Assembly (NCBI GenBank): GCA_027022365.1
Contig: JALVYU010000031.1
Coordinates: 32,001 to 96,000 of the forward strand
DNA length: 64,000 nt
Source of the DNA: Desulfurococcales archaeon
Lineage (GTDB): Archaea; Thermoproteota; Thermoprotei_A; Sulfolobales; Desulfurococcaceae
Direction of reading: 5' to 3'
Positions 21,976-40,493 of this stretch are shown here, one piece after another. A program made the position numbers and the translations under genes. Under the pieces are notes generated by a model, which was not told where the DNA came from, ran no database searches, and worked only from the letters and a program-made list of their open reading frames with translations. The stretch's first letter is position 1. Each line of letters opens with the position of its first letter.

Positions 21976-22508
21976 AGGTGGCAGGTCTCGATCTCAGAGC
22001 TAGACAGGATAGGCCTTCAGGGATAGCGTTTCTCCAGAAGAGAAGACTCATTTTTATATCAAAAGTTTACGGAGATGAAGAAATCCTTTCATTACTTGAT
22101 AAATACAAGCCCAAAATAGTAGCGATAGATTCTCCTCTGTCTCATTCCAGAGGATTTAGGAGAGTTGACAGGAAAATGATCAAGATGGGCTACAAGGTGT
22201 TACCGCCGGGATGGCCCGCAATGAGGAAGCTTGTTTCGAGGGCCATTAGGCTCAGAGAAATACTAGAAAGAAGAGGTGTTTTAGTTATTGAAACACATCC
22301 GAGGAGCTCGCTTTTATCATCTGGATGTAGTATATGGGAATTAATGGTACGCGAAGGGCTTGAACAGTCCTTGATCAGAGATCTTTCGAAAGATGAGATT
22401 GACGCACTCATAGCCGCGCTAACGGCTTACCATTACATGATCGGTGACTATGTTTCCGTCAAAGATGTTGATGGAGAAATAATCTTGTTACCACGTATAT
22501 GCAGTTGA
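21969..22508 (+). CDS. DUF429 family RNase H-like predicted nuclease
   Basis: AGLDL, VAIDSPLS, R..DR, VIETHP, DEIDALIAA. Confidence 0.85.
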   Translation: MVKVAGLDLRARQDRPSGIAFLQKRRLIFISKVYGDEEILSLLDKYKPKIVAIDSPLSHSRGFRRVDRKMIKMGYKVLPPGWPAMRKLVSRAIRLREILERRGVLVIETHPRSSLLSSGCSIWELMVREGLEQSLIRDLSKDEIDALIAALTAYHYMIGDYVSVKDVDGEIILLPRICS

Positions 22509-23474: not shown

Positions 23475-23572
23475 ATCAACCGTTCCCCAATCATTGTTGT
23501 GTCGTCGAATCATTTTATCTAGCTTAATAAGGAATTATAAAGTAAGTGATAACCTGATAATAGGTCAGTGGC

Positions 23573-24814: not shown

Positions 24815-24830
24815 TAATATAGACACGCGC

Positions 24831-26114
24831 ATGGAAGCCTCAGCAGGAATAATTGTATTATCACTATTTGTTTATATAGCCATTATAGCCTCAATTACCC
24901 TGGCAACCTATATGTTCTGGAACACATACTTTTTGGCACCAAGCCTCATCGTTAAGCTCAGCACATACTTTGTACTAATATTATTCACGTATATTGTTTT
25001 GACGGAGATGTATGACTTAGCGAACAACTTATCAAAAATAAAGTTATTCTCGGAGAACCTCTACATGAACCTGGAATACCTACTGATTCCTTTGAGCATT
25101 ATCTTGTCAATTGATCTACTAACTGATATAACAGCAAATATTTACAGAGAATATGAAATCGTAATGATATTAATTGATATAACTTTGATACTAGTAGAAT
25201 CTATTCTCCTCTATCTTCTTGGGAGAAGAATATTCTTAGGCCTCGAACTTAGAAAACTAATAAGAATACTTTACGGAAACACCCAAGGCCTATTACGTAG
25301 TTTTTGGAGAAAATTAAAGAATAGAGAATTATTCACCAATGCAGCATACTTTATCTCCTTCGTACTCCTTTACAACTATGGAATCCTTGCTTTCCAAGCT
25401 ATAAGAGTGATAACTGTAGCAACCGAACACATAACAATTAATTCTATTCTCAACTGCTTAGTCCTAATAATGATGATTAAACTAGTGCTATACTCATCAA
25501 CAATATCATATATGATGTACACAGGAATTATCCTATCGCCTGAACAAAAAATAGATTTGAGAAAAGTACTTGTTACACTGGATAGGCGCCAATCACTAAT
25601 TACGGCCATATATTATAGGTCCGTTAAGGAGCTGAAGATGTATATACATGAGGTTCTTCTTAATCCACTAAATGATGTTATTATCATATTACCGTATAAC
25701 ATAGATACAGAGTGTACACGTTTTATTAGAGAAGTTAAGAATAACAATACCGCCGTTATAATATATCTGAGAAGACAAACAACCGCTCTCCAGAAACTCC
25801 CCATTTCATCGGAAAAAAAGATATTTTATATTAGTTCTCTGCAGTATATGCAGATAAACTATATTATACGTGGCGTGAGATTTACCGCTCCTATACTAAG
25901 AATAATTATTTGTTTAATGCAAGATGAAAGCTTTATCGAAAAAATGGGCACTACGTTCTATAGATTCGTGAGAGGCATTATAGATTACTTCTGCGGGGCC
26001 AAGTTTACCCGTGTCTTTATAGAGTTTATAGCGCCTTATAATCGGTTCGATAATATTTCCGAATTATTGTCACTAATTGTTCATGATGAATATACATTAT
26101 CAAAACAACAATAG
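24831..26114 (+). CDS. Multi-pass membrane protein (~6 TM) with soluble C-terminal alpha/beta domain, possibly degenerate RecA/DUF835-like
   Basis: Six hydrophobic segments, then alternating strands/helices ending ISELLSLIVHDEYTL; AT-rich; likely ATG 24831. Confidence 0.6.
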   Translation: MEASAGIIVLSLFVYIAIIASITLATYMFWNTYFLAPSLIVKLSTYFVLILFTYIVLTEMYDLANNLSKIKLFSENLYMNLEYLLIPLSIILSIDLLTDITANIYREYEIVMILIDITLILVESILLYLLGRRIFLGLELRKLIRILYGNTQGLLRSFWRKLKNRELFTNAAYFISFVLLYNYGILAFQAIRVITVATEHITINSILNCLVLIMMIKLVLYSSTISYMMYTGIILSPEQKIDLRKVLVTLDRRQSLITAIYYRSVKELKMYIHEVLLNPLNDVIIILPYNIDTECTRFIREVKNNNTAVIIYLRRQTTALQKLPISSEKKIFYISSLQYMQINYIIRGVRFTAPILRIIICLMQDESFIEKMGTTFYRFVRGIIDYFCGAKFTRVFIEFIAPYNRFDNISELLSLIVHDEYTLSKQQ

Positions 26115-26306
26115 ATGTTTTCCAATAATACAACACTGTTATAATTAGTTGAAATCATTTATTGGTTAAAATAAAAAACTTGTTTTATGATATAAATCAA
26201 TATTTAGTCTTAGTGACATAGAAGTAATGTAGGTGTATTATTGGAAAGGAAACCATTACGTATGGGTGCATCTACTCATTTACACAGAATAGAGGAGGGA
26301 ATAAAT

Positions 26307-27047
26307 ATGGTCGTGATCGAAAAAGTGCCCACAGGGATTAAAGGGTTTGATGATATTGTCGAGGGAGGCCTGCCAAGGCCTGGTATAACATACATAATTG
26401 GGCACCCAGGCGTCGGGAAAACTACATTGGCTCTACAGATACTTTATAATCGTGCCCTTCAGGGAGAAAAAGGCATGTATGTATCGTTAACAGAGAAAAA
26501 AGAATCGGTTATAACTAGATATAAGGACTTCCCAGCGTTTAATAGGCTCGAGGAGTTCCTCCAAAAGAAACAACTAATGTTTTTCGAAGCCATACCCACC
26601 TATGGCCTCGGCAAAGACATGGTGATAAGCCTTATAGATGATGCATTCAACATAGCTCAGGAAAACAGTGTCAAAAACATAATATTCGATACTGTCACAA
26701 GCCTTACCATGTATCTGAGGAGAGACGAGGTTAGAACGATACTATCCTATATCAATGACAAAATCTATAACTCGAAGACAATGGGGATAATGATTGCCGA
26801 GCTACCCCTCTACAGCGAAGTAATCAACCCGCCGAATGAAGAATTCCTGTGTGACGTATTGATCGTGATGGATTATGTATGGATATATGCTGGCGCGCCA
26901 AAACTCGACGTGAGACTAATTCCCGTGAAAAGCAGAGTTGGACGAGTCGACAGGAGATCCTATATCGCGGTAATATCCCCGGAGACAGGTGTTGAAATAA
27001 TAGGTACCATTGAGACAGAGCACTTCACCCCATTCAGACAGGGATAA
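26307..27047 (+). CDS. KaiC/GvpD/RAD55 family single-domain RecA-like ATPase (intact motifs)
   Basis: PTGIKGFD...GG, Walker A GHPGVGKT, Walker B IIFD, CDVLI, KSR finger; GAGGAGG SD before ATG 26307. Confidence 0.9.
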   Translation: MVVIEKVPTGIKGFDDIVEGGLPRPGITYIIGHPGVGKTTLALQILYNRALQGEKGMYVSLTEKKESVITRYKDFPAFNRLEEFLQKKQLMFFEAIPTYGLGKDMVISLIDDAFNIAQENSVKNIIFDTVTSLTMYLRRDEVRTILSYINDKIYNSKTMGIMIAELPLYSEVINPPNEEFLCDVLIVMDYVWIYAGAPKLDVRLIPVKSRVGRVDRRSYIAVISPETGVEIIGTIETEHFTPFRQG

Positions 27048-27052
27048 CATAA

Positions 27053-28597
27053 TTGACCAATAGATTTTCAACCTGTATCCGCAGATCTATAAAACACACA
27101 GCCTTCATACCGCTCTATTTATTTATACTTATCATCTTCATCGCAATACTCTCCATTATGACCGAGAGAGGCAAAACAATTAGTGTTTCCCCGGTATTTT
27201 TGTTCTTATCTATGATAATGTATACACTCTACATTGCATTGCTCATAAGGATATACATGTATGCTAGGACTATTTTAGATATAGAAACATCGTGTGGAAT
27301 AATATCCCTAGGTATACTTACTTTTCTTTATCCTCTAGTCATTTTGCTGCCGTTTTTTTATCAAGCTAATAAAAGTTTTTCATACATAATAGATGTCTTT
27401 ATTATAGTAAATGCCTTGTTGATCGAATTACACTACGCTAATGTGCTATCTAGAGTTTTTAGTCTAATAAGTAATATTAGTGGAGCGAATGAGGGCGAGC
27501 CTTCAAGCCTCGTATCCTATAGATTTAAGAATATGTGGCTTCTAAGGGGCTTCGCTATCCTTGGTTCAATCCTCGTTTTAGTTCTTTTTATACTAATGAA
27601 GCTGTTTGTATCAAGTGTGAGCCATGAGTATCTGTTTTTTATCGTTGGCTTGACTATAGTGTTTCTTGTTTTGTCAGGAGTAATAACAGTGAGGTATAAG
27701 ATTACAAACGTCTTGTATCAAGGCCTCAGATTCGCATCTCTTTATAGGTTGTTTACATTAATGAATATTCTCGCCATACTGGTCTTTTTCGGCGTAGCGG
27801 CTGCAAATACAATGATAGAATACAAGGGTTTTATTGATCCATACGCTGTGTCTTTTCTCGTCGAGATAGTCATTGCTATGTTTGTTCTTGCTTTCCTAAA
27901 ATATTCTCTTGACGATCTTGTCGGACTTATTATTGTGTCGAAAGTCCCGGGCATTGCTATGAAGGTAGGCCTACTCCCCATCTATATGATCGTGCACGAT
28001 ATCCCCGTTATGAATAGTGTATCTAAGGTTACCCGTGTTTTTGGTGACATCCTTCGCTCGGTATGGATGGCCGGGTTCCCGATAAATACCATAATATATA
28101 TATCGAAGCCTCACAGTCTTATTAGGGCTTTACTTCTCTTCAACTTTTATGAAACCTACGACGAAGTAAAAACAGAGATTACGTCTCTAGGAAGAAACAT
28201 GGATAAACTACTCGGCAATCCTATAGCTCATATATTCAATATAAACATATCTTATCCGACATCAGAAACTTTGCCTAGACAACCTAGACAGTATTTCGGC
28301 ATAGAGGTTCATGAGAGGAGCATTACCTTCGAGCGCATCTACTTGATACGCTCTATCATGGGTATCATAAGAAGGTCTAAGGGCGTTCTCTTGGTTATAG
28401 AGGATCTATCAGATCTGATCAATATATCGAGCTTTACAACAGTATATTCCCTTATAAGAACACTTATATCGTTATTGAGGCCTAATGTGGATGCGATGGT
28501 CATCATAACACCCAAATATAGACCGCATGAAGAATACATAAATGTTTTTAAGAGTATAGCTAATAGCGTGGTGGACGTAACAAGATTATTAATCTAA
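27053..28597 (+). CDS. Multi-pass membrane protein (~8 TM) with C-terminal DUF835/inactive KaiC-like domain
   Basis: Eight hydrophobic segments; tail VLLVIEDLSDLINISSFTTVYSLIRTL...MVIIT...VFKSIANSVV resembles DUF835; no Walker A. Confidence 0.65.
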   Translation: MTNRFSTCIRRSIKHTAFIPLYLFILIIFIAILSIMTERGKTISVSPVFLFLSMIMYTLYIALLIRIYMYARTILDIETSCGIISLGILTFLYPLVILLPFFYQANKSFSYIIDVFIIVNALLIELHYANVLSRVFSLISNISGANEGEPSSLVSYRFKNMWLLRGFAILGSILVLVLFILMKLFVSSVSHEYLFFIVGLTIVFLVLSGVITVRYKITNVLYQGLRFASLYRLFTLMNILAILVFFGVAAANTMIEYKGFIDPYAVSFLVEIVIAMFVLAFLKYSLDDLVGLIIVSKVPGIAMKVGLLPIYMIVHDIPVMNSVSKVTRVFGDILRSVWMAGFPINTIIYISKPHSLIRALLLFNFYETYDEVKTEITSLGRNMDKLLGNPIAHIFNINISYPTSETLPRQPRQYFGIEVHERSITFERIYLIRSIMGIIRRSKGVLLVIEDLSDLINISSFTTVYSLIRTLISLLRPNVDAMVIITPKYRPHEEYINVFKSIANSVVDVTRLLI

Positions 28598-28669
28598 AGA
28601 GTTATTTAACAAGATATAGGTTGTACTCTATCATGTTTTTCGGTCGGGTTTTGTAGGGGAGGATTATCA

Positions 28670-29476
28670 TTGGCCGAGAATGCCGATGAGAGAGAGATAT
28701 ATGATATCATTGCGGGTATGCCTATAGAGACGGAAAAGCTCAATATACTGTCTGATATAACATTTGAGGCGCAGCTCCTCCTGAGAAGCAAGTTCATCAA
28801 GAAGATCAAGCTCAGCTTCGATGATTTCAAAAATCTCCCTAAGCTGGCCGAAGACAAGGAGGTTCTCCTCACAACAACTCTAGATGGAAAGAGATTTATA
28901 GTATATTTGAGCCACGGGAAAATCGTTTCTTCAGCCATGGTAGATACAAGAAAAGGAACCAGACAAGTAGGCCTAAAGCCGCTCGCAACATTAATCGCAG
29001 CTTCAAAGATAGCTCCCATAGTGTTTAAACTGTATGAGATCCAACCAATGGTCTCAGAAGATAGAACACGGGAAGCAAGTATTAGGCCCCGGTCACTAGA
29101 AGTTGGTTTCAAAAGACGTACTAGGCCTGTCAGGGTAATGGCTAAACCCGAGATCAGGCATGGTGGAATCGAAGAAAAAGAGAGTGGAGAACCAATAATA
29201 CTCGAGTTCACTAAACGCATAAAAGAGTTCATGGAAAAAATGAAGGAAGATGTTGCAGATCTAGCCGGTTATTACGGCTGTAAATTCATTGATCTCAAGA
29301 TCGAGATAAGCAGAGGGATACTTAAGATAAAGATCTATGTAAAAAAGAAAGGATTGTTCACAAAATGCCGTGCTGAGGACTTGAAGAAAGCTGTTGAAAA
29401 CGATGCAGACATACTGCTCACCATGCTTGACCTAGATACTCCTTGCGAGGTACATGTGATCGAGCGCAGAAAATAG
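28670..29476 (+). CDS. Hypothetical protein with PATAN/DUF2226-like N-terminal domain
   Basis: LLTTTLDGKRFIVYLSHGKIVSSAMVD...GL..L..L...FKLYEI pattern; GGAGG SD. Confidence 0.55.
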   Translation: MAENADEREIYDIIAGMPIETEKLNILSDITFEAQLLLRSKFIKKIKLSFDDFKNLPKLAEDKEVLLTTTLDGKRFIVYLSHGKIVSSAMVDTRKGTRQVGLKPLATLIAASKIAPIVFKLYEIQPMVSEDRTREASIRPRSLEVGFKRRTRPVRVMAKPEIRHGGIEEKESGEPIILEFTKRIKEFMEKMKEDVADLAGYYGCKFIDLKIEISRGILKIKIYVKKKGLFTKCRAEDLKKAVENDADILLTMLDLDTPCEVHVIERRK

Positions 29477-29619
29477 GGTTTGCCGTGAATCGGAGAGTAT
29501 TTAAAGCCCATTCTTGCTTGTACGAACGGGTATTTAACTATTATTTATATTTGATAGACCTTATAGATAGATTATGTAATCAATTAGTTGTTTGAGATTT
29601 TAGCGTTAAGGAAACTATA

Positions 29620-30510
29620 ATGAATAGTGGTGGATCGTGCTTGATACTGAGATTTGTACGTGTCAGAGAGAGGCCTGCCGGAAGAATACCTGATCTCTAC
29701 ATCGACACTATCTATGAGCTTGGGAAATACTCGTATTCAGCGGTAGTACTGCGTGTGAGAGATCAGCCAGGAGTTCTAGCCAAGATATTGGATGTTATGG
29801 CTAAACATGGAATTGATATTGCTAAGGTGAATGTCCCTGAGATCCCACATGGAGGAGAGGCATTCATATCAATAATAATGCGTAACTGTGATGAAGCATG
29901 TCTTGACGAAATAGAGAAGCAATTGCGAGGACTCGATGTTGTCCTTGGAATCAAGAAATTTGTGCCGCAGACGGGATTCTTGTTTATCAAATATAATTCT
30001 ATAAAAATACTTGATCAGCCCAGCATAATACTAACACGCAATATGATACGTAGCATTATTGATATGTTCATTAAGCATGGAGGCTATGCTGATCTTGGAA
30101 CTAGGAACACTCTCAGAACGATCGGTCATGGAATAGGGAGGCAGCTCTATGAGTGCATATCCAAGATAGAGACTGAAGTTGGGGAGGGAATAGAAGAGTA
30201 TAAGGTCGCGTTAGACTTGTTAAGAGATATCTATGAGTCCTTGGGATTCGGAACAATGGACATCATTGAAGTAACTCCAATGATGAGGTATACCATAAGG
30301 ATAAAGAACAATATGGAGTGTGCCGCTGCACGTGATCTCCACATAATCGATTTCACGGGATATATCACGAGAGGAATACTAGAGCAGTTCTTTGCCGATC
30401 TTTTCGGACGACGTGCAGTAGCCAAAGAAACAAGATGCATAAACCATGGCGATGAAATAGATGAATTCAAAGTTGACGTGTACGAGTCCACAACAATATT
30501 CTTAAGATAA
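29620..30510 (+). CDS. ACT + V4R (4-vinyl reductase) ligand-binding protein
   Basis: DQPGVLAKILDVMAKHGIDI (ACT); G..IG, GFG, NMEC, RGIL, ETRCINHGD...EF (V4R). Confidence 0.85.
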   Translation: MNSGGSCLILRFVRVRERPAGRIPDLYIDTIYELGKYSYSAVVLRVRDQPGVLAKILDVMAKHGIDIAKVNVPEIPHGGEAFISIIMRNCDEACLDEIEKQLRGLDVVLGIKKFVPQTGFLFIKYNSIKILDQPSIILTRNMIRSIIDMFIKHGGYADLGTRNTLRTIGHGIGRQLYECISKIETEVGEGIEEYKVALDLLRDIYESLGFGTMDIIEVTPMMRYTIRIKNNMECAAARDLHIIDFTGYITRGILEQFFADLFGRRAVAKETRCINHGDEIDEFKVDVYESTTIFLR

Positions 30511-30664
30511 AACTTTATCGCTAACAGACAGAGAAACGGGGTTGTTTTTATCAGTTCTATATCCTTTAATGGAGGATGTTGCGGTATAAATAACCTATTA
30601 ATTTACAATTAATTCCTTTGACGAATACAATAGCGAGATACAATAGAGAAAAGAGAATGATGAA

Positions 30665-32461
30665 TTACATGCCGAGCTCTCTTGTGCGTTCGAATAACTC
30701 CTTTGTAGCTTCACCAACTTCTTTTGTGCCTGAAACCAGTTCTGCTGTTTCTGCAGCTTCTGTTTCAGGCGCCATTGGAAGTACTTCAACCTCTGTCCCT
30801 GTCTCTTTTAGCTCTTCTACCGCACGCTTATAGACCGCTGCGGGGTCGTAGTAGTAGTTGAATATTATTCTCGAGACATCCCATACATTAGTTACCCCCT
30901 TGTACAACATCCAGTTCAATATAGTTGCCTTCCTGTAGATCTCGTCAATAATGTCCTCGAGGTCGAGGCCGCGCTTCATAGCGATATCTCTCAAGTGTAT
31001 GCTCTTCTCAAGATCTACTCTGAACGCGTCCTCCTTAGGATCCCATTGCGCCACTGTTATGTAGCGGTTATAGTCCTCAACCTCCTGCACGATAGTGACT
31101 CTTCTCTGCACCTTCACAACTCCTTTCTCAATACGCGTGATCACACGCCGCAAGTGTATGAACACGTTCATTAGCTTCATATAGGTAGGCGGGATATTCA
31201 TTGGCGGGCTCGTCAGCCTCTTGATAGCATAATCAAGCGTCTCGGCGTGAATGGTCGATAAACCTCCGTGTCCCGTGGCTAGTGATTGGAAGAGCACGAA
31301 TGCCTCCTCGCCACGGACCTCGCCGACGACGATGTAGTCTGGACGGTAACGTAGGCTGAGCTTCACGAGATCGAAGAGCCTGATGCTTGTACCGCCGGAT
31401 GAGCCTACTAGGTAGCTCTCACGGCTCGTAAGCTGTACCCAGTTGGGGTGGGGGAGGTTGATCTCAGGGGTGTCCTCAACCGTTACTATCTTCATACCGG
31501 GCTTGATGAACATCGAGATAACGTTTAGCAAAGTGGTCTTGCCGGTACCAGTACCGCCTGCGATCATCGCTGTCTTGGCGTGCTCGATCAGTTCCCATAG
31601 ATAAGCCGCTACGAGAGTGTTGAGCTCTCCCGACTGTATTATCTCTGTCACGCTGAATGGTCTCTCGCGGAACTTACGTATTGTGAATGTTGGTCCTTTA
31701 ACCGATACTTCTCTGCCGAAAGTTGCCGCTAGCCTGTGCTTCTCGGGTAGCATCGCGTCTAGGATTGGGAACGCAATACTGATGTGTTTACCCGCCATGT
31801 GTGCCATTTTCATGATGAACTCGTTCAGGTAGTCTTCGTCGAGGAAGGTAATGTTTGTAGGTATGCTCTCATACTTTTTGTGCCATACATAGATCGGTAT
31901 ATTTACGCCGTTACAGCTTATATCCTCGATATTCGGATCCTTCATGAGCGGGTCTATCGGTCCGTAGCCCAGCAGGTTTCTCTCGATATAGTAGAGCAAT
32001 TTGATACGTCTAGCACCTACTAGGCCTAGCTTCTGCTTATACTTGTCGGCTATACGCTCTGCTTCCCTGAAAACATATCCCTTTAGATCCTTGATGTCCT
32101 CGGGCCTTGTGGGTGGCTTGATCTCGTCCATAAGGATCTCTGTCAGCTTCTCGAGAACGGCCCTGTCCGTGGGTGTTAACCCGTACTCCTCGACAAAGTA
32201 CATAGGTCCTTGGGGTGTTTCAGCGATAACCACCTTGACGAATGGCTTATAGACATAGTAGCTCTCCATTATCCTCCAGCTAGGATCGCGGCGTGCGACC
32301 TGTATCGGCTCGGTAGGCATGATGACGTGACGTATTGCCTCCATCTCCCTCTGGCCAGCGCGGAGCCCCCTGGGCTTTTTCTTCTTTCCTTTCCCCAGCG
32401 CTACTCTTCTCTGTAAAATCTCCTTAAGCGAAGGCAATAGTAGACGCCCCACTCCAAACAC
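30665..32461 (-). CDS. Type IV pilus assembly ATPase (FlaI/AapE/VirB11 family)
   Basis: GYGPIDPLMKDPNIEDISCNG, FTIRKF, GGTGTGKTT, EDTPE, LRYRPDYIVVGEVRGEEA, TGH..STIHA. Confidence 0.95.
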   Translation of the reverse strand: MFGVGRLLLPSLKEILQRRVALGKGKKKKPRGLRAGQREMEAIRHVIMPTEPIQVARRDPSWRIMESYYVYKPFVKVVIAETPQGPMYFVEEYGLTPTDRAVLEKLTEILMDEIKPPTRPEDIKDLKGYVFREAERIADKYKQKLGLVGARRIKLLYYIERNLLGYGPIDPLMKDPNIEDISCNGVNIPIYVWHKKYESIPTNITFLDEDYLNEFIMKMAHMAGKHISIAFPILDAMLPEKHRLAATFGREVSVKGPTFTIRKFRERPFSVTEIIQSGELNTLVAAYLWELIEHAKTAMIAGGTGTGKTTLLNVISMFIKPGMKIVTVEDTPEINLPHPNWVQLTSRESYLVGSSGGTSIRLFDLVKLSLRYRPDYIVVGEVRGEEAFVLFQSLATGHGGLSTIHAETLDYAIKRLTSPPMNIPPTYMKLMNVFIHLRRVITRIEKGVVKVQRRVTIVQEVEDYNRYITVAQWDPKEDAFRVDLEKSIHLRDIAMKRGLDLEDIIDEIYRKATILNWMLYKGVTNVWDVSRIIFNYYYDPAAVYKRAVEELKETGTEVEVLPMAPETEAAETAELVSGTKEVGEATKELFERTRELGM

Positions 32462-32628
32462 GTAAATGGGCTAAACTCATAATACTACCTTATAGGTTAT
32501 AGGTCTTAAACATATAGCTAAATAAGGCTATTGCCTTTGCGGGTTCTTTTAATAATACTTGAATAGGGGGTATGCTAAAATATATGTTGGCACGACAATA
32601 ATAACCTAAAGATACACGGACGGATGCG

Positions 32629-34425
32629 GTGTTTGCGTTGGGTTTCTGGGACTGGGTTTATATGGTTTTTGAAAAGCCCGGCAAGAAGATCTTAGAGATA
32701 TATCCGCATCTCCCAGAACAGATAAGAAAAAGCGGTATGCACATGTATCCAGAAGTCTACGCGTCATTTGTAGCCTTTATGACATTGGTTCTTACTGGTT
32801 TTTCCGCGGTTCTTGCCGCTATTTTTATCGTGGTTAGACTACAATATCTCATATTTATACCGATCTTATTACCTGTTTTCGGCTTTGTTTTTCTTGTTTA
32901 CTTCCCATCAATGCTGGCCAGTAGCCGTGCGGGAGGAATAGAGGGTGAATTTCCATATACTGTGGCTTACCTTAGCATGATGGTAATGAGCGGCCTCTCA
33001 CCATATAGTGCCTTTGAGAGAATCACGAGAAGCAAAAGAGTCTTCATTAAAAGTAGCGAGCTAAGTCAGCGCTTCATACTCCTAGTTAGGGTTCTGGGCC
33101 GCGACCCCTTATCGGCTTTCGCAATGCTAAGTGCCCGTACCCCCAGCGCGACTGTACGTGATCTATTGATGGGCTATGTTACCACCGTACGTGCCGGTGG
33201 TGATGTAGCGGATTATTTGACGAAAAAAGCTAGGCTCCTGTTTTCAGAGATAATAGTTAAGATGAAGATTATCGCTGATAAGCTGGCCAGTATATTGGAG
33301 GCATATCTTGCCTTAGCCTTATTATCAATGATAAGCCTTACAGTCATGTACTTTGTAACGGTATCATTCGTATCAGTTGTTCCATTCGGCCTAAGTCCGG
33401 GCGGGATGTTCCTGTTCCTCTACGTGATGATGCCGATGATGTCCGCTATGATAATCTATCTCGCCGACCTCATACAGTACAAGGAGCCGTGGGTCGACTA
33501 CCGCCCATACATGGTTTTCGCGGGGCTATCACTACCCATTGCCGCTTACCTCTCGGTTTTCGGTATCTTCCTGCCAGGAGTGCTTCCACCTGGGAATAAG
33601 CTCAGGGAAAGTTTTCTTGTAAAGGGACTACACGATCTCTTGGCGCTCCCCGCCTCTATAACTCATGCACCAGGCTATGTTGTATCAAGTATACAGTTCG
33701 CCCTCGTCCTCCTTATCGCGACTTTCCCAGCAATGATTTATTACGAGTATGTTTCACGGGAGTACAAGGTGGTTAACGGGATAACGCTCTTCCTAAGAGA
33801 CCTCGTAGAGGTTAGAAAAACCGGTTTGTCGCCGGAGAGATCGATTATTGAGTTGTCCCGCAGAAACTATGGTGCCTTCACGAAGTATTTGAGGAAAATG
33901 GCGCTCCAGCTCAGCCTAGGAGTGCCGTTATCCAAGATAATAGATGATCTCTTCAAGAAGATCATTGTTTGGAGGGCAAAGGTACTGCTGTATGTCCTAA
34001 CCGATGCTATCGAGGTGGGAGGAGGGACGATCGAGGTCATGGAGAACCTGGCGTGGTTCGCCGAGAGCATAGACGCTATAGAGGATGAGCGTAAAAAGAA
34101 CCTCCGCACACTACTCATAGTACCCTACATGGGAGGCATACTAACAGCAGCAACAGTAGTAATGCTAACGGCATACTTAGGAAGTCTCCCGCTAAGCTTC
34201 GGGGCTTTTTCTACGGCCGCCGCAATGACCCTGCCGTCGATTATACTTAACACGTACTTCATGGGGCTAGTGGCAGGGAAAGTATCGGCGGGAAGCGTGG
34301 CTGCAGGATTCAAGCACGCGTTCCTGCTGACACTGATATCTCTGTTTCTCTTACTGGCGTCCGGAATAATAGGTTCTCACCTAATGATCATGCCTTCGAG
34401 TCACGCAGTAGTGCCTGGAGGATGA
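32629..34425 (+). CDS. Type IV pilus membrane platform protein (TadC/FlaJ/AapF, two T2SSF domains)
   Basis: Two T2SSF repeats (SGLSPYSAF...GGDV; TGLSPERS...GGG) with multiple TM helices; divergent from the ATPase. Confidence 0.92.
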   Translation: MFALGFWDWVYMVFEKPGKKILEIYPHLPEQIRKSGMHMYPEVYASFVAFMTLVLTGFSAVLAAIFIVVRLQYLIFIPILLPVFGFVFLVYFPSMLASSRAGGIEGEFPYTVAYLSMMVMSGLSPYSAFERITRSKRVFIKSSELSQRFILLVRVLGRDPLSAFAMLSARTPSATVRDLLMGYVTTVRAGGDVADYLTKKARLLFSEIIVKMKIIADKLASILEAYLALALLSMISLTVMYFVTVSFVSVVPFGLSPGGMFLFLYVMMPMMSAMIIYLADLIQYKEPWVDYRPYMVFAGLSLPIAAYLSVFGIFLPGVLPPGNKLRESFLVKGLHDLLALPASITHAPGYVVSSIQFALVLLIATFPAMIYYEYVSREYKVVNGITLFLRDLVEVRKTGLSPERSIIELSRRNYGAFTKYLRKMALQLSLGVPLSKIIDDLFKKIIVWRAKVLLYVLTDAIEVGGGTIEVMENLAWFAESIDAIEDERKKNLRTLLIVPYMGGILTAATVVMLTAYLGSLPLSFGAFSTAAAMTLPSIILNTYFMGLVAGKVSAGSVAAGFKHAFLLTLISLFLLLASGIIGSHLMIMPSSHAVVPGG

Positions 34426-34432
34426 CAGTCCT

Positions 34433-36289
34433 ATGAGGAAGAGATCTATGAGAACATGTAAGGGTGTGAGCGAAGTCATATCAACAGTTATACTCGCCGC
34501 CACCATAATCATGATATCACTAGTGGTATTCTACTATGCTATGTACGCGTTCCAGACAAGCAGTCTCGCAACACAGTTCGGCTACACAAAATCGGTTCTA
34601 CTAGATCTCGCCTCGAACCTCAACTATGTGATCTCCGGTAACCAGTACTACGCCAACATACCGTCAAAAACAGTGGGTGTAGGATACAATGAGTCCAGTA
34701 CATACACCATATCGATAGGAGTGCCAGCCTACAACATAACGATAACTATAAACAACCCGCTAACAACCCCCCTCACCAACTACCAGGTAATGGTATGGCT
34801 CAACCAGACAAACTTCGCGGGCTGGAACTACCTGAACATGACAGGTAACACCACGGACTTCATATTTGTAGACCCCTACTACCACATACTCAGCTTCTAC
34901 GTACAGGAGTTTGACCCACTCAACAAGGTTGCCAAGATATGGGTAAAGGTACCATATATTCCCGGCGGCGGCTCAACAAAGATAATAATGTTCTATGGAA
35001 CCCCGCTCCTCAAGGGCCATAGCGACTTCTACTCAGTATTCGACAGGTTCTACGACGACTTCACAACCAGCCCATATAATAATGGGAAATGGATCATATA
35101 CAAGGCGGCGGGAACAAATTACACCGCAGAATTCGTCTGGGATCCCAAGCAGGGGGTAGTTAACCTGACCCTACCATACCCGGATCTCGGGGTAATGGCC
35201 TTCGCCGCGGAAAACGGCAGGCCTATCCAGGGCCTCCCTGTACTCGCGATCATAAGGTACAAGGGCGGTAATCCGAGCGCCACACCAGCCGATGGCTTCG
35301 CTTTCGCTTTCAATAAAGACATATCGGTGTATGAGCGGTACGCGGGTACTTTTGGTGGTACGGGAGGCTCTCTCGACCTAGAGTTGCTCAGCCCCTCGGG
35401 CACGATCATATCAGATGGATACGCGTTCGTCATGGATGCGTACCAGGACACAGGCACGTACCCCGATCCTGCTCCAAACTATACAGCTATAGAACGTACA
35501 AACGTTACATACCCCTACCCAAAAATAGATAACAAGTACTACCTTACAGACGCCGTATCCGATCTTACATGGCATGTTCTGACATTATCAATAGAGCCCG
35601 ATTACTCTTATGCAAACATAAGCATAGATGGCTCTCAGGTATTGACAAACGTTGCTCTCCCAACGAAGCTACCGTATACAGGGTTCGGCATCTCGGCGTC
35701 CACCCATAGTCTATCAGCATACTACACGGTAGATTATATCGAGGTGTATTATAGGAAGTACTACGGGCTCGACCCAACAGTATATATTAACCCAGTCAAC
35801 GGCACAGGGTTCGCGCCAATCTACACTATGAACTATGTCGGAATATATACGGCGGCATACGCTGCTTTCACGACGACAAGGCAGATCATCTATGGAACCA
35901 GCAACTATACAGTCGACGACATACGGTTGATCCCCAGAGTCACACAGTTCTACCTGAACGGCTTCACTTATGCCGAACTAGATACTTTCAGATTCTTGGT
36001 TAATCCCTATGAAGTAGTCACAGCCAGTGGAATAACATACACAATAAGTATCACGGGTGCCGAACTGCATCCACAGGTAATATCGTCGTCCCCCTCTCAA
36101 CTCATAGCCTCGTATGCGGGGATAACGTATTCGAATACGTTCAATACGACAAGGGTAGCGATCATAGTATCGTTGAATGGATACCTGCAAGTGATCGATA
36201 TAACGTCATCGCTGACAGGATACAATCCAGCGACATCCCATGTACAAGTATTCATTACGATTAAGAAGGTTAATTTGGTGTTTATCTAA
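34433..36289 (+). CDS. Pilin-like adhesin: class III signal peptide, DUF2341 domain, legume-lectin-like domain
   Basis: KG|VSEVISTVIL; NYQV...DFIF...IWVKVP.IP...IIMFYG (DUF2341); ADGFAFAF...WHVLT...GFGISAST (L-type lectin); 13 N-X-S/T sequons. Confidence 0.82.
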   Translation: MRKRSMRTCKGVSEVISTVILAATIIMISLVVFYYAMYAFQTSSLATQFGYTKSVLLDLASNLNYVISGNQYYANIPSKTVGVGYNESSTYTISIGVPAYNITITINNPLTTPLTNYQVMVWLNQTNFAGWNYLNMTGNTTDFIFVDPYYHILSFYVQEFDPLNKVAKIWVKVPYIPGGGSTKIIMFYGTPLLKGHSDFYSVFDRFYDDFTTSPYNNGKWIIYKAAGTNYTAEFVWDPKQGVVNLTLPYPDLGVMAFAAENGRPIQGLPVLAIIRYKGGNPSATPADGFAFAFNKDISVYERYAGTFGGTGGSLDLELLSPSGTIISDGYAFVMDAYQDTGTYPDPAPNYTAIERTNVTYPYPKIDNKYYLTDAVSDLTWHVLTLSIEPDYSYANISIDGSQVLTNVALPTKLPYTGFGISASTHSLSAYYTVDYIEVYYRKYYGLDPTVYINPVNGTGFAPIYTMNYVGIYTAAYAAFTTTRQIIYGTSNYTVDDIRLIPRVTQFYLNGFTYAELDTFRFLVNPYEVVTASGITYTISITGAELHPQVISSSPSQLIASYAGITYSNTFNTTRVAIIVSLNGYLQVIDITSSLTGYNPATSHVQVFITIKKVNLVFI

Positions 36290-36801
36290 TGGTAGCCCCG
36301 ATCATAACCCACGTTATAGGAATTACTGCCCTCATAGCTATTATGGTGATCATAATTATATATGTCGGCTTCATGACGCAGGCGATGATGTATGAGAATG
36401 TCCAGAGAAACCTAGAGTATGTCTCTCAATCGATATCAATGCAACTGCTGTATGCGATAACATCTGACACCAACATGACGATCCAGCTAAACTATCCAAT
36501 AGTGGTTGGGAAAAACACTTTCTACAACATCTACATAGGTAACACATCGTATGTTTTACAGGTGGCCCCCTTCCTCAATGACAAGTTATCGCCGTCCACC
36601 CTCTATGTTTTAACAATGACGCCCGACAAAACCGTCTACGCGTACACCCCCGTATGCAATATAACGTATAACGGTAAGCTTATCCTCGTGGAGAACAACC
36701 TGCTGGTTATTGGTAGCGGTACAGTTACAACATTAGCGATAAACATAAACACCACTAATATTTACATATCAATATATAAGATGGAGGTCAGATATCCTTG
36801 A
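36289..36801 (+). CDS. Minor pilin-like membrane-anchored protein
   Basis: N-terminal hydrophobic helix, beta-rich body, TAATG coupling inside the pilus operon. Confidence 0.7.
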   Translation: MVAPIITHVIGITALIAIMVIIIIYVGFMTQAMMYENVQRNLEYVSQSISMQLLYAITSDTNMTIQLNYPIVVGKNTFYNIYIGNTSYVLQVAPFLNDKLSPSTLYVLTMTPDKTVYAYTPVCNITYNGKLILVENNLLVIGSGTVTTLAININTTNIYISIYKMEVRYP

Positions 36802-38129
36802 AGGAAATCATAGAATACATTTTAGCCGCTTTAATAATAATTTCGATAATACCAGTCATAACATACGTAGAGAACACTGTCTACGCACCTAGGCCAAGGA
36901 GCGTTGAGCCGATAGTTCAAGTTCTATTTGCAAATAAAATATTTGATGAAATAAACAAGATATTTACGGCAGGTAATCTCACTTTATTTCAATCCAATAT
37001 ATTTAATACAATAATCGCTCAAGAACTATCACCATATAACAATTACGGCTACAACATAACTATTAGACCATACGCTATCAAGATCGATAGTGTTGGATGG
37101 ACGATCAACGTCACATCAATGTATAACGGAACCATTTCCCTCCTTGTAGTATCCACGGGCCTAGCTGTAAGGACGATAAACACTCCGCGCTACACGTTCC
37201 TCCTGCAGAACGGCACATACAAGTATGTATTCGCCAACCCGTTTAGCCCGACATATACGATGATGGTTATAGCGATCCTGGACATCGGTACTGCGAAATT
37301 TATTGATTATAAAATAACACAGAGCAGCGTCAACAAACTCACCCTAGTTAATATAAACGGAAAAGTATATCTTCTAGCACCGACATCCCTCAGCACGCCG
37401 CTGACATCATCTCCGGGCCAGGCGATAGTATGCTATTATGATCCTGCGACGAATAACTACTATTATTACGGCAGTATAAATTACAACTACATAAAAAGCA
37501 TAAGCTATTACAGGGCACCAAACTATTTCTTCGGGACATTATACAATAGTACAACAAGATACACTGAATACAGCAAGATAAGATACGATGTATCTTATGC
37601 AGGAGTTATAACGCTTTATGGAAATACATACAATATGTTCGGACTCTACTCCTACACAAACCAGTCCACCGGGTACTTTCACGGCAACTATTATTTCACA
37701 GGAACAGTCGTTACCAATACTGTTTCAACATCTACAACCACCGTTATCAACACAATAACCTATACTTCTCGTTGGTGGTGGTGGATAACAATAACAGGCA
37801 CATATACGACGACGCTGCCCGTAGAAGCGAACATCACCGCTACATACCCCAAAATAACAAGCACTACCCTCACAGCGAGCTCGACGACCTCGTACATAAC
37901 ATCCTCGGCAACGGCAACATATCCAATATACTATCCACTATTAAATGTCGTTGCGATAATTGTCGTGGATTCTAGCGGTAACATATATGTGGCGCTACCC
38001 TACTTCAACTATCTGACCGCTGGCTCCACTATACCTGCGAACTGGCCCGTCAGCCATGAAGCCTACTGGTTCAGGATAGGAATGTTCACTTATTATGTAC
38101 AGATAACTATTTGGAGGAAATCGATATGA
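36798..38129 (+). CDS. Minor pilin-like surface protein, Thr/Tyr-rich
   Basis: MKEIIEYILAALIII anchor, Thr/Ser-rich segment with WWWW, overlapping stop/start. Confidence 0.7.
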   Translation: MKEIIEYILAALIIISIIPVITYVENTVYAPRPRSVEPIVQVLFANKIFDEINKIFTAGNLTLFQSNIFNTIIAQELSPYNNYGYNITIRPYAIKIDSVGWTINVTSMYNGTISLLVVSTGLAVRTINTPRYTFLLQNGTYKYVFANPFSPTYTMMVIAILDIGTAKFIDYKITQSSVNKLTLVNINGKVYLLAPTSLSTPLTSSPGQAIVCYYDPATNNYYYYGSINYNYIKSISYYRAPNYFFGTLYNSTTRYTEYSKIRYDVSYAGVITLYGNTYNMFGLYSYTNQSTGYFHGNYYFTGTVVTNTVSTSTTTVINTITYTSRWWWWITITGTYTTTLPVEANITATYPKITSTTLTASSTTSYITSSATATYPIYYPLLNVVAIIVVDSSGNIYVALPYFNYLTAGSTIPANWPVSHEAYWFRIGMFTYYVQITIWRKSI

Positions 38130-38509
38130 GGTCACAGTCGGTTATCATCTCGGCGTACATGGCTGTAGCGTTGCTGGTAATTGCTATGGCGACCATTTAT
38201 GTATATGTGTTGCCACATACACAATCGTACTTATCCTCATATTCGTCACTGGATGTGAGAAGCATTGTTTATAGCAGGTACTCGTGGACCGCGAAAATCC
38301 TTGCAAACGAGCTTTACAGAGAGCTCAACCTGAAATACGTCTATGTGAACATAACGACATACAATATCACCACGGGCAGAATAATCAGTACCGACTACTA
38401 TATAATACGTCCCGCCAGAAACACTAGCCTCATCTATATCACATATAACCTCACCAGCTTCAATCCCGACGGGATTATGTATATCTACAACATAAAGGTG
38501 GGAAGATGA
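38126..38509 (+). CDS. Minor pilin
   Basis: MRS|QSVIISAYMAVALLV class III-like N-terminus; GGAGG SD and ATGA coupling. Confidence 0.72.
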   Translation: MRSQSVIISAYMAVALLVIAMATIYVYVLPHTQSYLSSYSSLDVRSIVYSRYSWTAKILANELYRELNLKYVYVNITTYNITTGRIISTDYYIIRPARNTSLIYITYNLTSFNPDGIMYIYNIKVGR

Positions 38510-39858
38510 AGGGACAGCTACCGATAATTATTGCCTTCACAATAATAATGGCTATTGTAATCTCCACTGCAATATATATTTCAACAATCCCTGTAAACGT
38601 GAAGTTCAGCTATACCGGCAAACAATATAGTGACTGGGAAATATATGATCAGGAACTGACCCAGCTAATACTCTACATGCTTAAACAAGGGGTCACGGCC
38701 GCAACCCCTCTCATCGAAAATTACATTAAATCGAACATATTTACCCAGAGCATCACCTACACGCGTGTCTACGCACCCCTAACAGCCTATCTCACCTATG
38801 GATTCTGGTATTCCGAGTACTTCAACGTATATGTGCCGACGGGAAGAGAATATGTTTCGATCACACCATCATACTATACAGGAACCGTTCTTTCAGAAGT
38901 GAGTGTCTTAGCGACAAAAACACTGAACTCCACGGCATACAAGATCCTGACGAGCTGGATAAACAGCATGAAGAAGCTAGGTCTAAGAATAATTATAGAC
39001 AATTTCATAACAGCCTATAATCTAAGCCTAACATCAACGGGAACAACAGCCATTGGCATGGCTAACGCCTCGGTAAACTTCACCATAACTATATTCAACT
39101 CTCTAGGCGAATACAGGGTTTACACGAAGACATCACTGTTGCACTGCCAAGTCAATTTCACACACGGATACTACTCGGGCGCAGACTCAATCAGTGGAGG
39201 ATTTGTCCTACCCCTCGTCATACAGACATATATAATGATCGACGGGACACGCTACTATTATGTCCTCTCGCCCAGAGACGTGACCACGTACTACTACTCA
39301 CAATTATTCTCCACACTACCATCCTTTGCCGCGAAATACGGTGGCTCACCCCTCGCCAAAGCCTACGTGATAAACAATGGGCAGGCGGCGTTCTACAGGG
39401 GAAACGGATTAACGAATGTAACATTGATTATAAGGTACAATACTTACGACGAATTCCTCGTCGACTGGATCAAATACGTTCATTTCTCCTCTATAATAGG
39501 GCTCATAAAATCAACAGACCTAGACTGGAACAACGTATTCTATGTATTCAACTATATGACATGGGATCTAAGCTACTGGGGCACCACAAATGTTACGACC
39601 TTAGTGTCAGAAGATAGCATTAACCTGACAGACATAACAGGCAATAACGTCGAAGTATCGTATTACACCCAGTCTATATCACCATACGTTAACTACACGA
39701 AAGTTCTCACCTTCTATGTACCGGGATATTCGAGAATAGATGTTAACGGAGTACCGGTTATCGTGCCGACACAGTTCTACATCTACTACTCCGGAGAATA
39801 TCTAGCATACTCCTTCCTATATGCATACTCCTTCGACATTAATATTAGGGGTAGATAA
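38506..39858 (+). CDS. Large minor pilin / surface protein
   Basis: MKG|QLPIIIAFTII class III signal peptide; Tyr/Thr-rich; ATGA coupling. Confidence 0.75.
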   Translation: MKGQLPIIIAFTIIMAIVISTAIYISTIPVNVKFSYTGKQYSDWEIYDQELTQLILYMLKQGVTAATPLIENYIKSNIFTQSITYTRVYAPLTAYLTYGFWYSEYFNVYVPTGREYVSITPSYYTGTVLSEVSVLATKTLNSTAYKILTSWINSMKKLGLRIIIDNFITAYNLSLTSTGTTAIGMANASVNFTITIFNSLGEYRVYTKTSLLHCQVNFTHGYYSGADSISGGFVLPLVIQTYIMIDGTRYYYVLSPRDVTTYYYSQLFSTLPSFAAKYGGSPLAKAYVINNGQAAFYRGNGLTNVTLIIRYNTYDEFLVDWIKYVHFSSIIGLIKSTDLDWNNVFYVFNYMTWDLSYWGTTNVTTLVSEDSINLTDITGNNVEVSYYTQSISPYVNYTKVLTFYVPGYSRIDVNGVPVIVPTQFYIYYSGEYLAYSFLYAYSFDINIRGR

Positions 39859-39955
39859 GCCAGCACATAATCCACTGATCATTGGCATGAGCTTCCCTCA
39901 GTAAATATAGGGCGTTTTTCCCTTATTTTTATACCTAAAAACTCGATCATAAAAT

Positions 39956-40055
39956 GCAACCAATGATTATACGTTGAGCAACGCAGATAAAATGTTGCCT
40001 ATATCAAGACATAAGCTTTTAATTTCCTATGTCACTATCATATTGTAAGAGGTGA
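39956..40055 (+). promoter_or_regulatory. Major pilin promoter with tandem GCAAC-N11/12-GTTG inverted repeats
   Basis: Sites at 39956-39976 and 39978-39998, TATA-like TTTTAATT 40017-40024, SD GAGGTGA 40049-40055. Confidence 0.45.
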
Positions 40056-40061
40056 ACAAGT

Positions 40062-40493
40062 ATGCGTGCAATATCCCCAGTAATAGCAACAGTAATAATA
40101 GTATCAGTCGCTATTGCCATTAGCATCGCAGTAGCCCTATGGCTGACTGGTGTTACCAGCGGATTTACTCAGACTGAGAATCTGCAAATAGTATCAAGTT
40201 ACGCCACAGCTGTTGATACCCCGGTTAAGGGATGGAACATTACTATAGTGTTAAAGAATACAGGTACTGTTGCAGCGACCATTGATAACATATTCATAAA
40301 CGGCATTCCTGCTCAGAACAATACTAACGGTGTCTACTGGCTCAATGGTACCGGTACAACAATCGAACCCGGCAAGAGTATAAGGATAATAATAGTGTTA
40401 AAACAAGGACAATTCTCATCAGGCCAGATGGTGAATATCAAGATACATACTGCTAGCGGTAGGGACTACCCGACAACAGTTACTCTGCCATAA
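40062..40493 (+). CDS. Major type IV pilin (archaeal, AapA/B-like)
   Basis: MRA|ISPVIATVIIVSVAIAISIAV class III signal; LKNTG, IDNIFING Ig-like body; own promoter. Confidence 0.92.
   Translation: MRAISPVIATVIIVSVAIAISIAVALWLTGVTSGFTQTENLQIVSSYATAVDTPVKGWNITIVLKNTGTVAATIDNIFINGIPAQNNTNGVYWLNGTGTTIEPGKSIRIIIVLKQGQFSSGQMVNIKIHTASGRDYPTTVTLP

Follow-up and report, generated by a model that had tools for sequence, protein, structure and literature searches.

The locus described here raises the question of whether an archaeal KaiC-like ATPase, together with two membrane proteins and two soluble proteins encoded beside it, could serve as a sensory system for a type IV pilus (T4P). It lies in a stretch of 64,000 nucleotides of a Desulfurococcales archaeon of the heat-loving family Desulfurococcaceae (assembly GCA_027022365.1, contig JALVYU010000031.1, positions 32,001 to 96,000), hereafter referred to as the window. 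An earlier sequence-only reading of this stretch had proposed a kinase-free sensory system, centred on KaiC, that switches a lectin-bearing pilus. The results showed that the genes are real, that the inventory is largely as first guessed and that the neighbourhood is conserved, but also that the constant family-wide partner of the pilus is not KaiC; it is a 268-amino-acid protein, which we call X268, while the KaiC and membrane protein pair is an add-on found in seven genera. Our tentative explanation, to which we give somewhat less than an even chance, is that the genes form an accessory sensory or regulatory layer, specific to the Desulfurococcaceae, on a pilus of the subclade 4A type, with the functional link running by the route set out below.

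Signal transduction in Crenarchaeota is poorly understood and two-component systems are scarce. The idea that KaiC-like proteins act as archaeal signalling hubs rests on comparative genomics, and CirA of a haloarchaeon was the only experimental case found in the literature searched. Such hubs, in which KaiC-like ATPases are associated with inactivated KaiC domains (DUF835, MEDS), were predicted by Makarova, Galperin and Koonin in 2017, as cited in the available parts of PMC5847659 and PMC10983859, the former of which labels DUF835 as inactivated KaiC (iKaiC). The available sections of PMC4858521 also predict KaiC-family ATPases to be regulators of T4P and note KaiC families near archaeal T4P loci. 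The locus in the window offers a compact, conserved and testable set of genes beside a defined output machine.

Conservation of the gene order and co-occurrence with the pilus

The gene order recurs across several genera of one family, the Desulfurococcaceae, and the arrangement is thus more than chance. Three patterns were observed. Pattern A, to which the window belongs, reads DHH-family phosphoesterase gene (DHH), in some loci an Nre gene, the membrane protein gene TM1, KaiC, the second membrane protein gene TM2, X268, the ACT-V4R gene, a convergent pilus ATPase gene, and a divergent tadC gene followed by pilin genes; it was found in the window's own genus (g1) and in g2, g12, g18, g19 and g36, with TM1 missing from the g19 loci and the g36 locus (L056), and in g11 the KaiC orthologue lies on a short separate contig. 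Pattern B consists of DHH, X268, which touches or overlaps the ATPase gene at its 3' end, tadC and pilin genes, with no KaiC, TM or ACT-V4R gene, and was seen in seven fetched loci of g7, g10 and g13 and, by coordinates, in four more genomes (11 genomes and three genera in all). In pattern C, X268 stands beside DHH and the pilus locus lies 95 kb off or on a different contig; the six genomes concerned, from six genera, are spread over three or more places in the X268 tree, three of them have ACT-V4R and three do not, and all six are without a KaiC orthologue, their best KaiC-type matches being at E 1e-14 to 1e-19. In one further locus (L053, genus g35) the sequence stops just behind X268, and its pattern is not assignable.

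Full-length KaiC orthologues (35-96% identical) were found in 7 genera, 15 genomes in total. Twelve of these genomes have them on the same contig as X268 and the gene of the pilus ATPase, the other three (G004, G015 and G016) being interrupted by contig ends, and in none of the 12 genomes with contig context was the KaiC orthologue seen away from X268 and the pilus, so that the linkage of the module to pilus genes, on which the sequence-only reading depended, holds in the relatives. TM1 orthologues lie upstream of KaiC in 10 loci, and ACT-V4R orthologues come after X268 in 17 related loci.

X268 has a wider distribution than KaiC: within the window's family 34 of 53 genomes have it, and a search of 17 other families of the class, with 247 genomes, found none. 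For 54 family genomes both X268 and the pilus ATPase were examined, and presence of the ATPase was defined as at least 64% identity, a line which was set after seeing a gap between 53% and 64%. On this definition the ATPase was present in 34 of 35 X268-positive genomes in comparison to 1 of 19 X268-negative genomes. The sole X268-positive miss is G004, whose contig ends inside ACT-V4R, and the sole X268-negative genome with the ATPase is G253, which is 81% complete; the rest of the 19 X268-negative genomes have only a 46-53% identical paralogue (10) or nothing at E<=1e-100 (8). G105 is the only genome of g8 with an X268 remnant and also the only one of g8 with a 64% identical ATPase, which adjoins the remnant, and this joint presence looks like an independent event.

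Three points speak against the term KaiC-centred: 11 genomes of three genera keep X268 next to the ATPase gene while having no KaiC, membrane partner or ACT-V4R, it is X268 that tracks the pilus, and the module is not co-transcribed with the ATPase gene. In the X268 tree (27 rows, one split g2 row left out, midpoint root only) the loci with KaiC belong to two well-supported clades that stand apart, with patterns B and C between them, and the KaiC label needs three changes, at least two of them forced by starred branches. These data fit a history in which the KaiC module was gained once, early, and then lost repeatedly, among others in every lineage with a relocated pilus locus.

Gene orientation and transcription units

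According to the sequence-only reading, five co-oriented genes run directly into the pilus ATPase gene. The five genes are indeed all on the plus strand (24798-30510), but the second part of this description is wrong, because the ATPase gene (30665-32461) is on the minus strand and converges on the ACT-V4R gene across a spacer of 154 bp. The five-gene run therefore cannot share a transcript with the ATPase gene, and one operon reaching from TM1 to the ATPase gene is ruled out. On its other side the ATPase gene diverges from tadC, with a spacer of 167 bp. Within the run, KaiC and TM2 form the only tightly coupled pair; TM2 starts 5 nt past the KaiC stop, and the two genes are translationally coupled in three genera. 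Elsewhere in the run there are AT-rich spacers of 192 bp (measured from the KaiC start at 26307), 72 bp and 143 bp, so a single five-gene operon is not established. The start first given for TM1, 24831, is an internal ATG of an open reading frame (ORF) that begins at 24798, while the gene itself is real; the first 17 nt of TM1 also belong to the upstream Nre gene. The family scans covered 16 ORFs and gave no match to a histidine kinase, Che or archaellin family, in agreement with what had been read from the letters.

One alternative explanation is that these genes are neighbours only: KaiC and TM2, with TM1, would be a self-contained KaiC/iKaiC signalling unit with targets elsewhere, X268 and ACT-V4R would be unrelated small proteins, and the adjacency to the pilus locus would be gene order inherited within one family. 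The convergent ATPase gene, which is not co-transcribed, the AT-rich spacers, which permit separate promoters, and the overlap of TM1 with an Nre gene and not with a pilus gene are all in favour of it, as are the six genomes in which X268 stays by DHH when the pilus locus is elsewhere and the commonness of KaiC paralogues, the window's own genome having seven KaiC-type matches and the window a second KaiC-like gene by a TrmB gene. On the other hand, the KaiC orthologue is never apart from X268 and the pilus in the 12 genomes with context and is absent from all six genomes with a moved pilus locus, X268 and the ATPase co-occur at the frequencies given above, and the single g8 member with an X268 remnant also has the ATPase orthologue. 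On balance we consider it rather unlikely that the genes are neighbours only.

X268 and the ACT-V4R protein

The accessory layer which we tentatively propose has X268 as its constant element. Homologues of this protein are annotated as 'hypothetical protein' in Desulfurococcus species, and its position is labelled arCOG08835, 'Uncharacterized protein', in the supplementary table of the 2016 T4P census (PMC4858521), the available rows of which give arCOG08835 no T4P-specific flag. The description of X268 as a PATAN/DUF2226-like protein was borne out in part. Two orthologues from g7 scored 23 and 24.2 bits against DUF2226 (PF09987; cut-off 22), but the window's own X268 matches neither the DUF2226 nor the PatA_N model. 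Of 27 members compared, two reach E<=1 with DUF2226 (best 0.0024) and two match PatA_N (PF14332), the best E for the latter being 0.076. In a language-model atlas the DUF2226 cluster scored 0.87 and the PatA_N cluster 0.85 (rank 9, 14% share), values which are leads only. The X268 profile gave nothing below E 1.6 among the sequences of solved structures, PatA_N had no match in the window's own genome, and canonical DUF2226 members were found in 0 of 301 Thermoproteota genomes at E<=1e-5. Taken as a whole, the family matches support X268 as a putative divergent DUF2226-like protein, the N-terminal domain of which would be DUF2226/PATAN-like.

The AlphaFold2 model of X268, calculated from a 27-row alignment, has a predicted local distance difference test (pLDDT) score of 79. 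Its N-terminal domain (residues 4-125), most of which reaches a pLDDT of about 90 or higher, is joined by a disordered linker (129-175) to an alpha/beta sandwich at the C-terminus (176-268). The C-terminal domain resembles RimP_N, KH and the MamM C-terminal domain with Z 9.2-8, a range of generic matches, and the Foldseek and VIA-align searches with the whole model listed C-domain matches only. A predicted complex of the pilus ATPase (residues 40-565, 12 rows) with X268 (27 rows) scored 0.02 in comparison to a mark of 0.32, a result which speaks neither for nor against binding.

In the ACT-V4R protein the ACT domain is above its cut-off (36.9 bits vs 27, E 3e-9), but V4R stays below (23.9 bits vs 31, E 4.3e-5) and is backed only by a partial match of the NCBIfam MsvR model, restricted to residues 162-284. 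From these matches it may be regarded as a putative small-molecule-binding protein.

Some of these features bear on an alternative in which the KaiC state, set by the membrane sensors and ACT-V4R, would alter expression from the divergent ATPase and tadC-pilin promoters via a DNA-binding partner, similar to CirA, and would not act on the motor proteins. The gene of CirA, a KaiC-like protein, neighbours the arl genes on the other strand, and CirA lowers the arlA1, arlI and arlJ transcripts according to the available text of PMC10983859, V4R occurs in the regulator MsvR, whose model matches the stretch mentioned above, and the X268 C-domain has a KH/RimP_N-like alpha/beta fold. However, the family scans detected no helix-turn-helix or other DNA-binding family in any of the five module proteins, and the KH-like resemblance is generic, since models that match nothing clearly usually have their best score at Z 8-9. 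Transcriptional control of this kind is therefore quite unlikely in our judgement.

The KaiC-family ATPase and the membrane proteins TM1 and TM2

The active ATPase of the proposed layer was described as intact KaiC/RAD55-type at first reading, and this was upheld. The ORF matches PF06745 with 113.7 bits (cut-off 26.6, E 1.1e-32) over residues 29-254 of 268; a GGAGG upstream and agreement with the starts of the orthologues favour 26307 as the likely start, and the protein is thus a single domain of 246-268 amino acids (aa). The Walker A motif G[HQ]PGxGKT, the Glu after strand 2 and the Walker B motif hhhhD, which we take to be the catalytic residues by analogy with KaiC CI, are kept in 14 of 14 aligned orthologues, and by these intact motifs the ATPase is active-looking. 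The closest solved relatives are KaiC CI (2.7e-22) and the single-domain proteins PH0186, PH0284 and SSO2452 (1e-10 to 1e-12), while FlaH is a distant one (E 4.7e-4).

Two identities were rejected for this ATPase. The first is ArlH/FlaH, for which the NCBIfam ArlH model gave 42.4 bits in comparison to a cut-off of 215, with no archaellin or arl family among the 16 ORFs. The second is the cyanobacterial clock KaiC, which has two KaiC domains in tandem (about 500 aa) and KaiB/KaiA as partners, as the window's protein has a single domain and the circadian KaiC models gave 76 and 46 bits in comparison to cut-offs of 408 and 546 (no KaiB search was made). Further along the window there is a second single-domain KaiC-family gene (59686-60429, minus strand, PF06745 1.5e-33), directly upstream of a TrmB-type regulator gene (58990-59673, minus strand), and the two may be another KaiC-based regulatory pair.

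TM1 is a polytopic membrane protein whose soluble tail spans about 195 aa (residues ~242-438), and TM2 is a polytopic membrane protein with a C-terminal tail at residues ~297-514. Neither has a Pfam match even at E<=10, and homologue searches, which for TM1 covered 5.8 billion proteins, returned only close relatives that carry no Pfam domains (7 proteins for the TM2 tail, 10 for TM1 and 24 for X268). Within the genus TM1 and TM2 diverge faster than their neighbours, with 58-86% identity in comparison to about 78-96%. In genus g19 a soluble ORF of 153 aa replaces TM1 upstream of KaiC (L014:16661-17122, minus strand; L052:7016-7477, plus strand), and it gave no significant match to the hidden Markov model (HMM) of the TM2 tail (E 0.2 and 0.65).

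The sequence-only reading had seen a DUF835-like tail in TM2, for which the evidence is divided. There is no direct match of TM2 to the Pfam DUF835 model (PF05763) at E<=10, and across the window's own genome this model touches only the KaiC gene (E 0.038). The link is made through intermediate sequences. A profile of 13 TM2 tails, run against 1.84 billion representatives, picked up 37 proteins at E<=1e-3; of the 28 weakest of these, 7 carry DUF835, two far above its cut-off and five below threshold, and 13 carry DUF835, DUF7504, DUF7090 or MEDS. The two above the cut-off are the proteins P0030 (E 4e-5) and P0042 (E 9e-4), and in both the matched stretch is inside the DUF835 domain (160 and 170 bits, respectively). 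With an HMM of the widened set of TM2-tail matches, the neighbouring KaiC orthologues were the best non-self ORFs, in colinear alignment, at E 0.012-0.16.

The AlphaFold2 model of the TM2 tail (13-row alignment, pLDDT 76, predicted template modelling score 0.79) alternates strands and helices. Its Foldseek matches at E<=1e-3 were all of the RecA superfamily (8 of 8: Elp4/5/6, DnaB-type helicase, KaiC, PH0250 and FlaH; template modelling scores 0.36-0.48), but VIA-align ranked Rossmann methyltransferases (Z 11.3-9.8) over KaiC-like chains (Z 9.4-8.2), PH0250 having Z 9.4 (root mean square deviation 3.5, 155 aligned) and KaiC Z 8.4. The predicted fold by itself does not decide between a RecA/KaiC-like and a Rossmann domain, and the sequence does better. 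The tail has no P-loop, the pattern GxxxxGK[ST] being absent, whereas an invariant Asp is kept in a Walker-B-like strand (8-row alignment) and an invariant Tyr in the helix after it (8-row and 13-row alignments). The TM2 tail as a divergent DUF835/inactivated-KaiC-like alpha/beta domain is supported by these results.

The TM1 tail has an invariant Tyr equivalent to that of the TM2 tail, and the two tails were aligned by hhalign with E 5.3e-4 and a probability of 31% over 71 columns (TM1 347-415 against TM2-tail 114-192). Other tries were weaker: the widened TM2-tail HMM gave E 9.2 and the first hhalign comparison E 0.21, and the language-model atlas gave no usable match. Judged by these alignments, the TM1 tail is probably a paralogue of the TM2 tail. 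A RecA-like relationship of the tails, on which the sequence-only reading likewise depended, is indicated for the TM2 tail by the retrieval of DUF835 proteins and the Foldseek matches, and for the TM1 tail by its alignment to the TM2 tail.

A structural alternative, in which KaiC would play the part of ArlH for the ATPase and TM1 and TM2 would form an ArlX-like, membrane-anchored ring of dead RecA-like domains around the pilus ATPase, i.e., a machine part and not a sensor, draws on the ArlH-like size of the single-domain KaiC (246 aa), on the RecA-like tails of the membrane proteins and on the translational coupling of KaiC with TM2, but is very unlikely given the far closer resemblance of the ATPase to KaiC CI than to ArlH or FlaH and given that three genera run the same pilus locus with no module genes, the module thus being dispensable for the machine.

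The pilus genes

The pilus on which the proposed layer would act was described at first reading as having an ATPase, a TadC platform, five coupled minor pilins or adhesins and a major pilin, and all of these are present, the five ORFs at 34433-39858 overlapping or abutting each other. The ATPase matches T2SSE with 117.9 bits (cut-off 24.9, E 5.4e-34), and its orthologues are 64-95% identical across the family. The TadC-like protein matches T2SSF with 72.6 bits (cut-off 25.2, E 3.6e-20) in two stretches. All six proteins encoded downstream of tadC begin with a hydrophobic helix, as read from their translations, and the last of them, a pilin whose N-terminus is typical of archaeal pilins, matches the UpsA model with 50.2 bits (E 2.8e-13). 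As judged from a T2SSE ATPase, a T2SSF/TadC platform and predicted pilins with a class III-type signal, the locus is an archaeal type IV pilus locus. The four minor-pilin-like ORFs (36289-39858) have no Pfam family, and their orthologues appear in the same order in relatives; the available text of PMC4858521 reports three to four untraceable extra components for the Desulfurococcales subclade 4A.

The 618-aa protein has an N-terminal class III-type signal and a solid match to DUF2341 (59.6 bits vs a cut-off of 23.4), and its middle part is conserved only within the genus. It also contains the candidate domain after which the pilus had been called lectin-bearing, an L-type lectin (PF18483) at residues 279-432; with 32.3 bits (E 1.1e-7) in comparison to a cut-off of 78.3 the lectin itself is left in doubt, and it is DUF2341 in the same protein that can be assigned with confidence.

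Two other machines were considered and rejected for this locus. For the Ups pilus, the UpsF model gave 77.3 bits for the TadC-like protein in comparison to a cut-off of 400, and the UpsA match quoted above compares with a cut-off of 130, both far under. For the archaellum, the models were likewise far under their cut-offs, the NCBIfam FlaI model giving 370.5 bits for the ATPase in comparison to 550, with ArlH as given above.

Many relatives, among them L015, L017, L021, L052, L053, L057 and L060, have a pilus ATPase gene into which one or two stretches of intein size are inserted in frame, near residues 309 and 396 (window numbering). The resulting frames measure 1054-1547 aa in the fetched loci and reach 1996 aa at most, while the window copy has no insertion. 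In the window's own genome, at least three further T4P-type ATPase genes were found among contigs C26, C11 and C38, besides a weak partial match on C38, and the one on C11 is split in two pieces inside a 953-aa frame, which suggests an intein.

Proposed mechanism and its weight

The route by which an accessory layer would act on the pilus can be set out as follows. X268, whose gene lies against the 3' end of the pilus ATPase gene and accompanies it across the family, would be the constant element, to which further layers were added in part of the family: the ACT-V4R protein, an active KaiC coupled to TM2, and TM1, usually upstream. The membrane domains of TM1 and TM2 may sense a membrane or envelope cue, and their catalytically dead RecA-like tails may bind or co-assemble with the KaiC ring and so alter its ATPase or oligomeric state, a step which is put forward because of the KaiC/iKaiC hub proposal as cited elsewhere. 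The KaiC state would then be passed to X268, with a metabolite input through ACT-V4R, and X268 would act post-translationally on the ATPase/TadC motor. This last step is modelled on a cyanobacterial precedent, since in Synechocystis the PATAN domain, an output domain, binds PilB1 and PilC according to the available text of bioRxiv 10.1101/2021.06.11.447907.

A more specific version, in which TM1 and TM2 with their dead RecA tails and an active single-domain KaiC form a mixed membrane-anchored ring as a kinase-free relay, the nucleotide state of the ring being read by a PATAN-like X268/arCOG08835 that binds the ATPase or TadC directly, has in our view only a small chance of being right in full. 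If true, it would parallel the cyanobacterial PATAN-PilB1 switch in an archaeon, with KaiC replacing the CheA/CheY phosphorelay. Should the contacts hold, the archaeon would couple membrane and metabolite cues to surface adhesion with no kinases involved. The locus also provides a first functional lead for arCOG08835.

Several points weigh against an accessory regulatory layer of this kind. All of the evidence comes from one family, whose kin are not independent, and the co-occurrence reduces to a few clades, with g8, g17 and g4 lacking both genes. X268 is equally constant beside the DHH gene, including the six genomes with the pilus locus elsewhere, so inheritance of gene order may account for its place next to the pilus genes. 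The module and the ATPase gene point towards each other and are thus not co-transcribed, and a conserved tail-to-tail adjacency is weaker functional evidence than an operon. The window's own genome has at least three other T4P-type ATPase genes, 37-45% identical to that of the window, and no output domain is recognisable in the module. The methyltransferase ranking of the TM2 tail and the missing family match of the window's X268, both reported above, count on the same side, and we infer each of the contacts between proteins, the way in which the signal runs, and its output.

Comparison with known systems

The locus is a variant of an already predicted kind of archaeal KaiC signalling system, for which we infer the steps of the mechanism. 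Similar to the predicted hubs, it has an active KaiC adjoining inactivated-KaiC-like proteins and no histidine kinase. The key differences are that the iKaiC domains of the window are too divergent for the DUF835 model (E<=10), and that they end two polytopic membrane proteins, with relatives limited to 37 proteins in 1.84e9. In addition, a KaiC-T4P vicinity is not reported for the Desulfurococcales subclade 4A in the available parts of PMC4858521. The full-text literature searched held nothing on DUF2226, arCOG08835 or this module, with Makarova et al. 2017, which may already tabulate the neighbourhood, lying outside the search.

The closest described gene order is that of the subclade 4A loci of Makarova, Koonin and Albers (2016). 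As given in the available text of PMC4858521, three named Desulfurococcus genomes have DHH (arCOG00423), arCOG08835, a FlaI-type ATPase, TadC, PilA-family pilins, and DUF2341-type surface and secreted proteins, which is pattern B. The window and six further genera differ from it by the insertion of KaiC, TM1/TM2 and ACT-V4R genes between DHH and the ATPase gene.

With the cyanobacterial PATAN regulators the window shares a small soluble protein linked to a T4P extension ATPase, the N-domain of X268 showing weak DUF2226/PatA_N signals. X268 is distinguished from them by being archaeal, by having no REC domain and by its merely putative PatA_N membership, the signal appearing in 2 of 27 members with a best E of 0.076.

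CirA of Haloferax volcanii is, as far as the available text of PMC10983859 goes, also a KaiC-like protein whose gene lies on the opposite strand beside T4P-type motor genes (arlI/arlJ), and it has a regulatory phenotype, the repression of archaellum gene expression. Unlike the system proposed here, CirA acts on the archaellum and cell shape at the transcript level, and no membrane iKaiC partners, X268 or ACT-V4R are described for it in that text. ArlH (FlaH), likewise, is a single-domain RecA/KaiC-like protein encoded near a T4P-type ATPase, but the window's KaiC is far under the ArlH model (42.4 vs 215), FlaH is a distant relative, and no archaellin, ArlX, ArlF or ArlG genes are present at the locus.

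Features of the locus and neighbouring genes

Table 1. Genes of the module and of the pilus locus in window coordinates.
Feature	Position	Strand	Remarks
TM1	24798-26114	+	438 aa; ORF and translation
KaiC-like ATPase	ORF 26241-27047 (268 aa); likely 26307-27047 (246 aa)	+	PF06745
TM2	27053-28597	+	514 aa; no Pfam family
X268	28670-29476	+	268 aa; no Pfam family
ACT-V4R protein	29620-30510	+	296 aa; ACT above cut-off, V4R below
Type IV pilus assembly ATPase	30665-32461	-	598 aa; T2SSE; no intein
TadC/UpsF-like polytopic platform protein	32629-34425	+	598 aa; T2SSF
Large pilin-like surface protein, candidate tip adhesin	34433-36289	+	618 aa; DUF2341
Minor-pilin-like ORF	36289-36801	+	170 aa; N-terminal hydrophobic helix
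Minor-pilin-like ORF	36798-38129	+	443 aa; N-terminal hydrophobic helix
Minor-pilin-like ORF	38111-38509	+	132 aa; N-terminal hydrophobic helix
Minor-pilin-like ORF	38506-39858	+	450 aa; N-terminal hydrophobic helix
Major pilin candidate, PilA/UpsA-like	40062-40493	+	143 aa; UpsA model

The region from TM1 through KaiC and TM2 to X268 (window 24001-30000) has a G+C content of 0.38-0.40, in comparison to 0.45-0.51 on either side. Upstream of it are an archaeal Nre (NreA-like) gene (23573-24814, plus strand) and, 59 bp away and divergent from it, the DHH/DHHA1 phosphoesterase gene (22488-23513, minus strand). Two antisense ORFs of low complexity on the minus strand, one within the Nre gene (23524-24060, 178 aa) and one within the X268 gene (28606-29232, 208 aa), are most likely not genes. 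At the other end of the pilus locus, a K+ channel gene (Ion_trans_2 and TrkA_N; 40480-41517, minus strand) converges on the pilin gene, with an overlap of 14 nt at the 3' ends.

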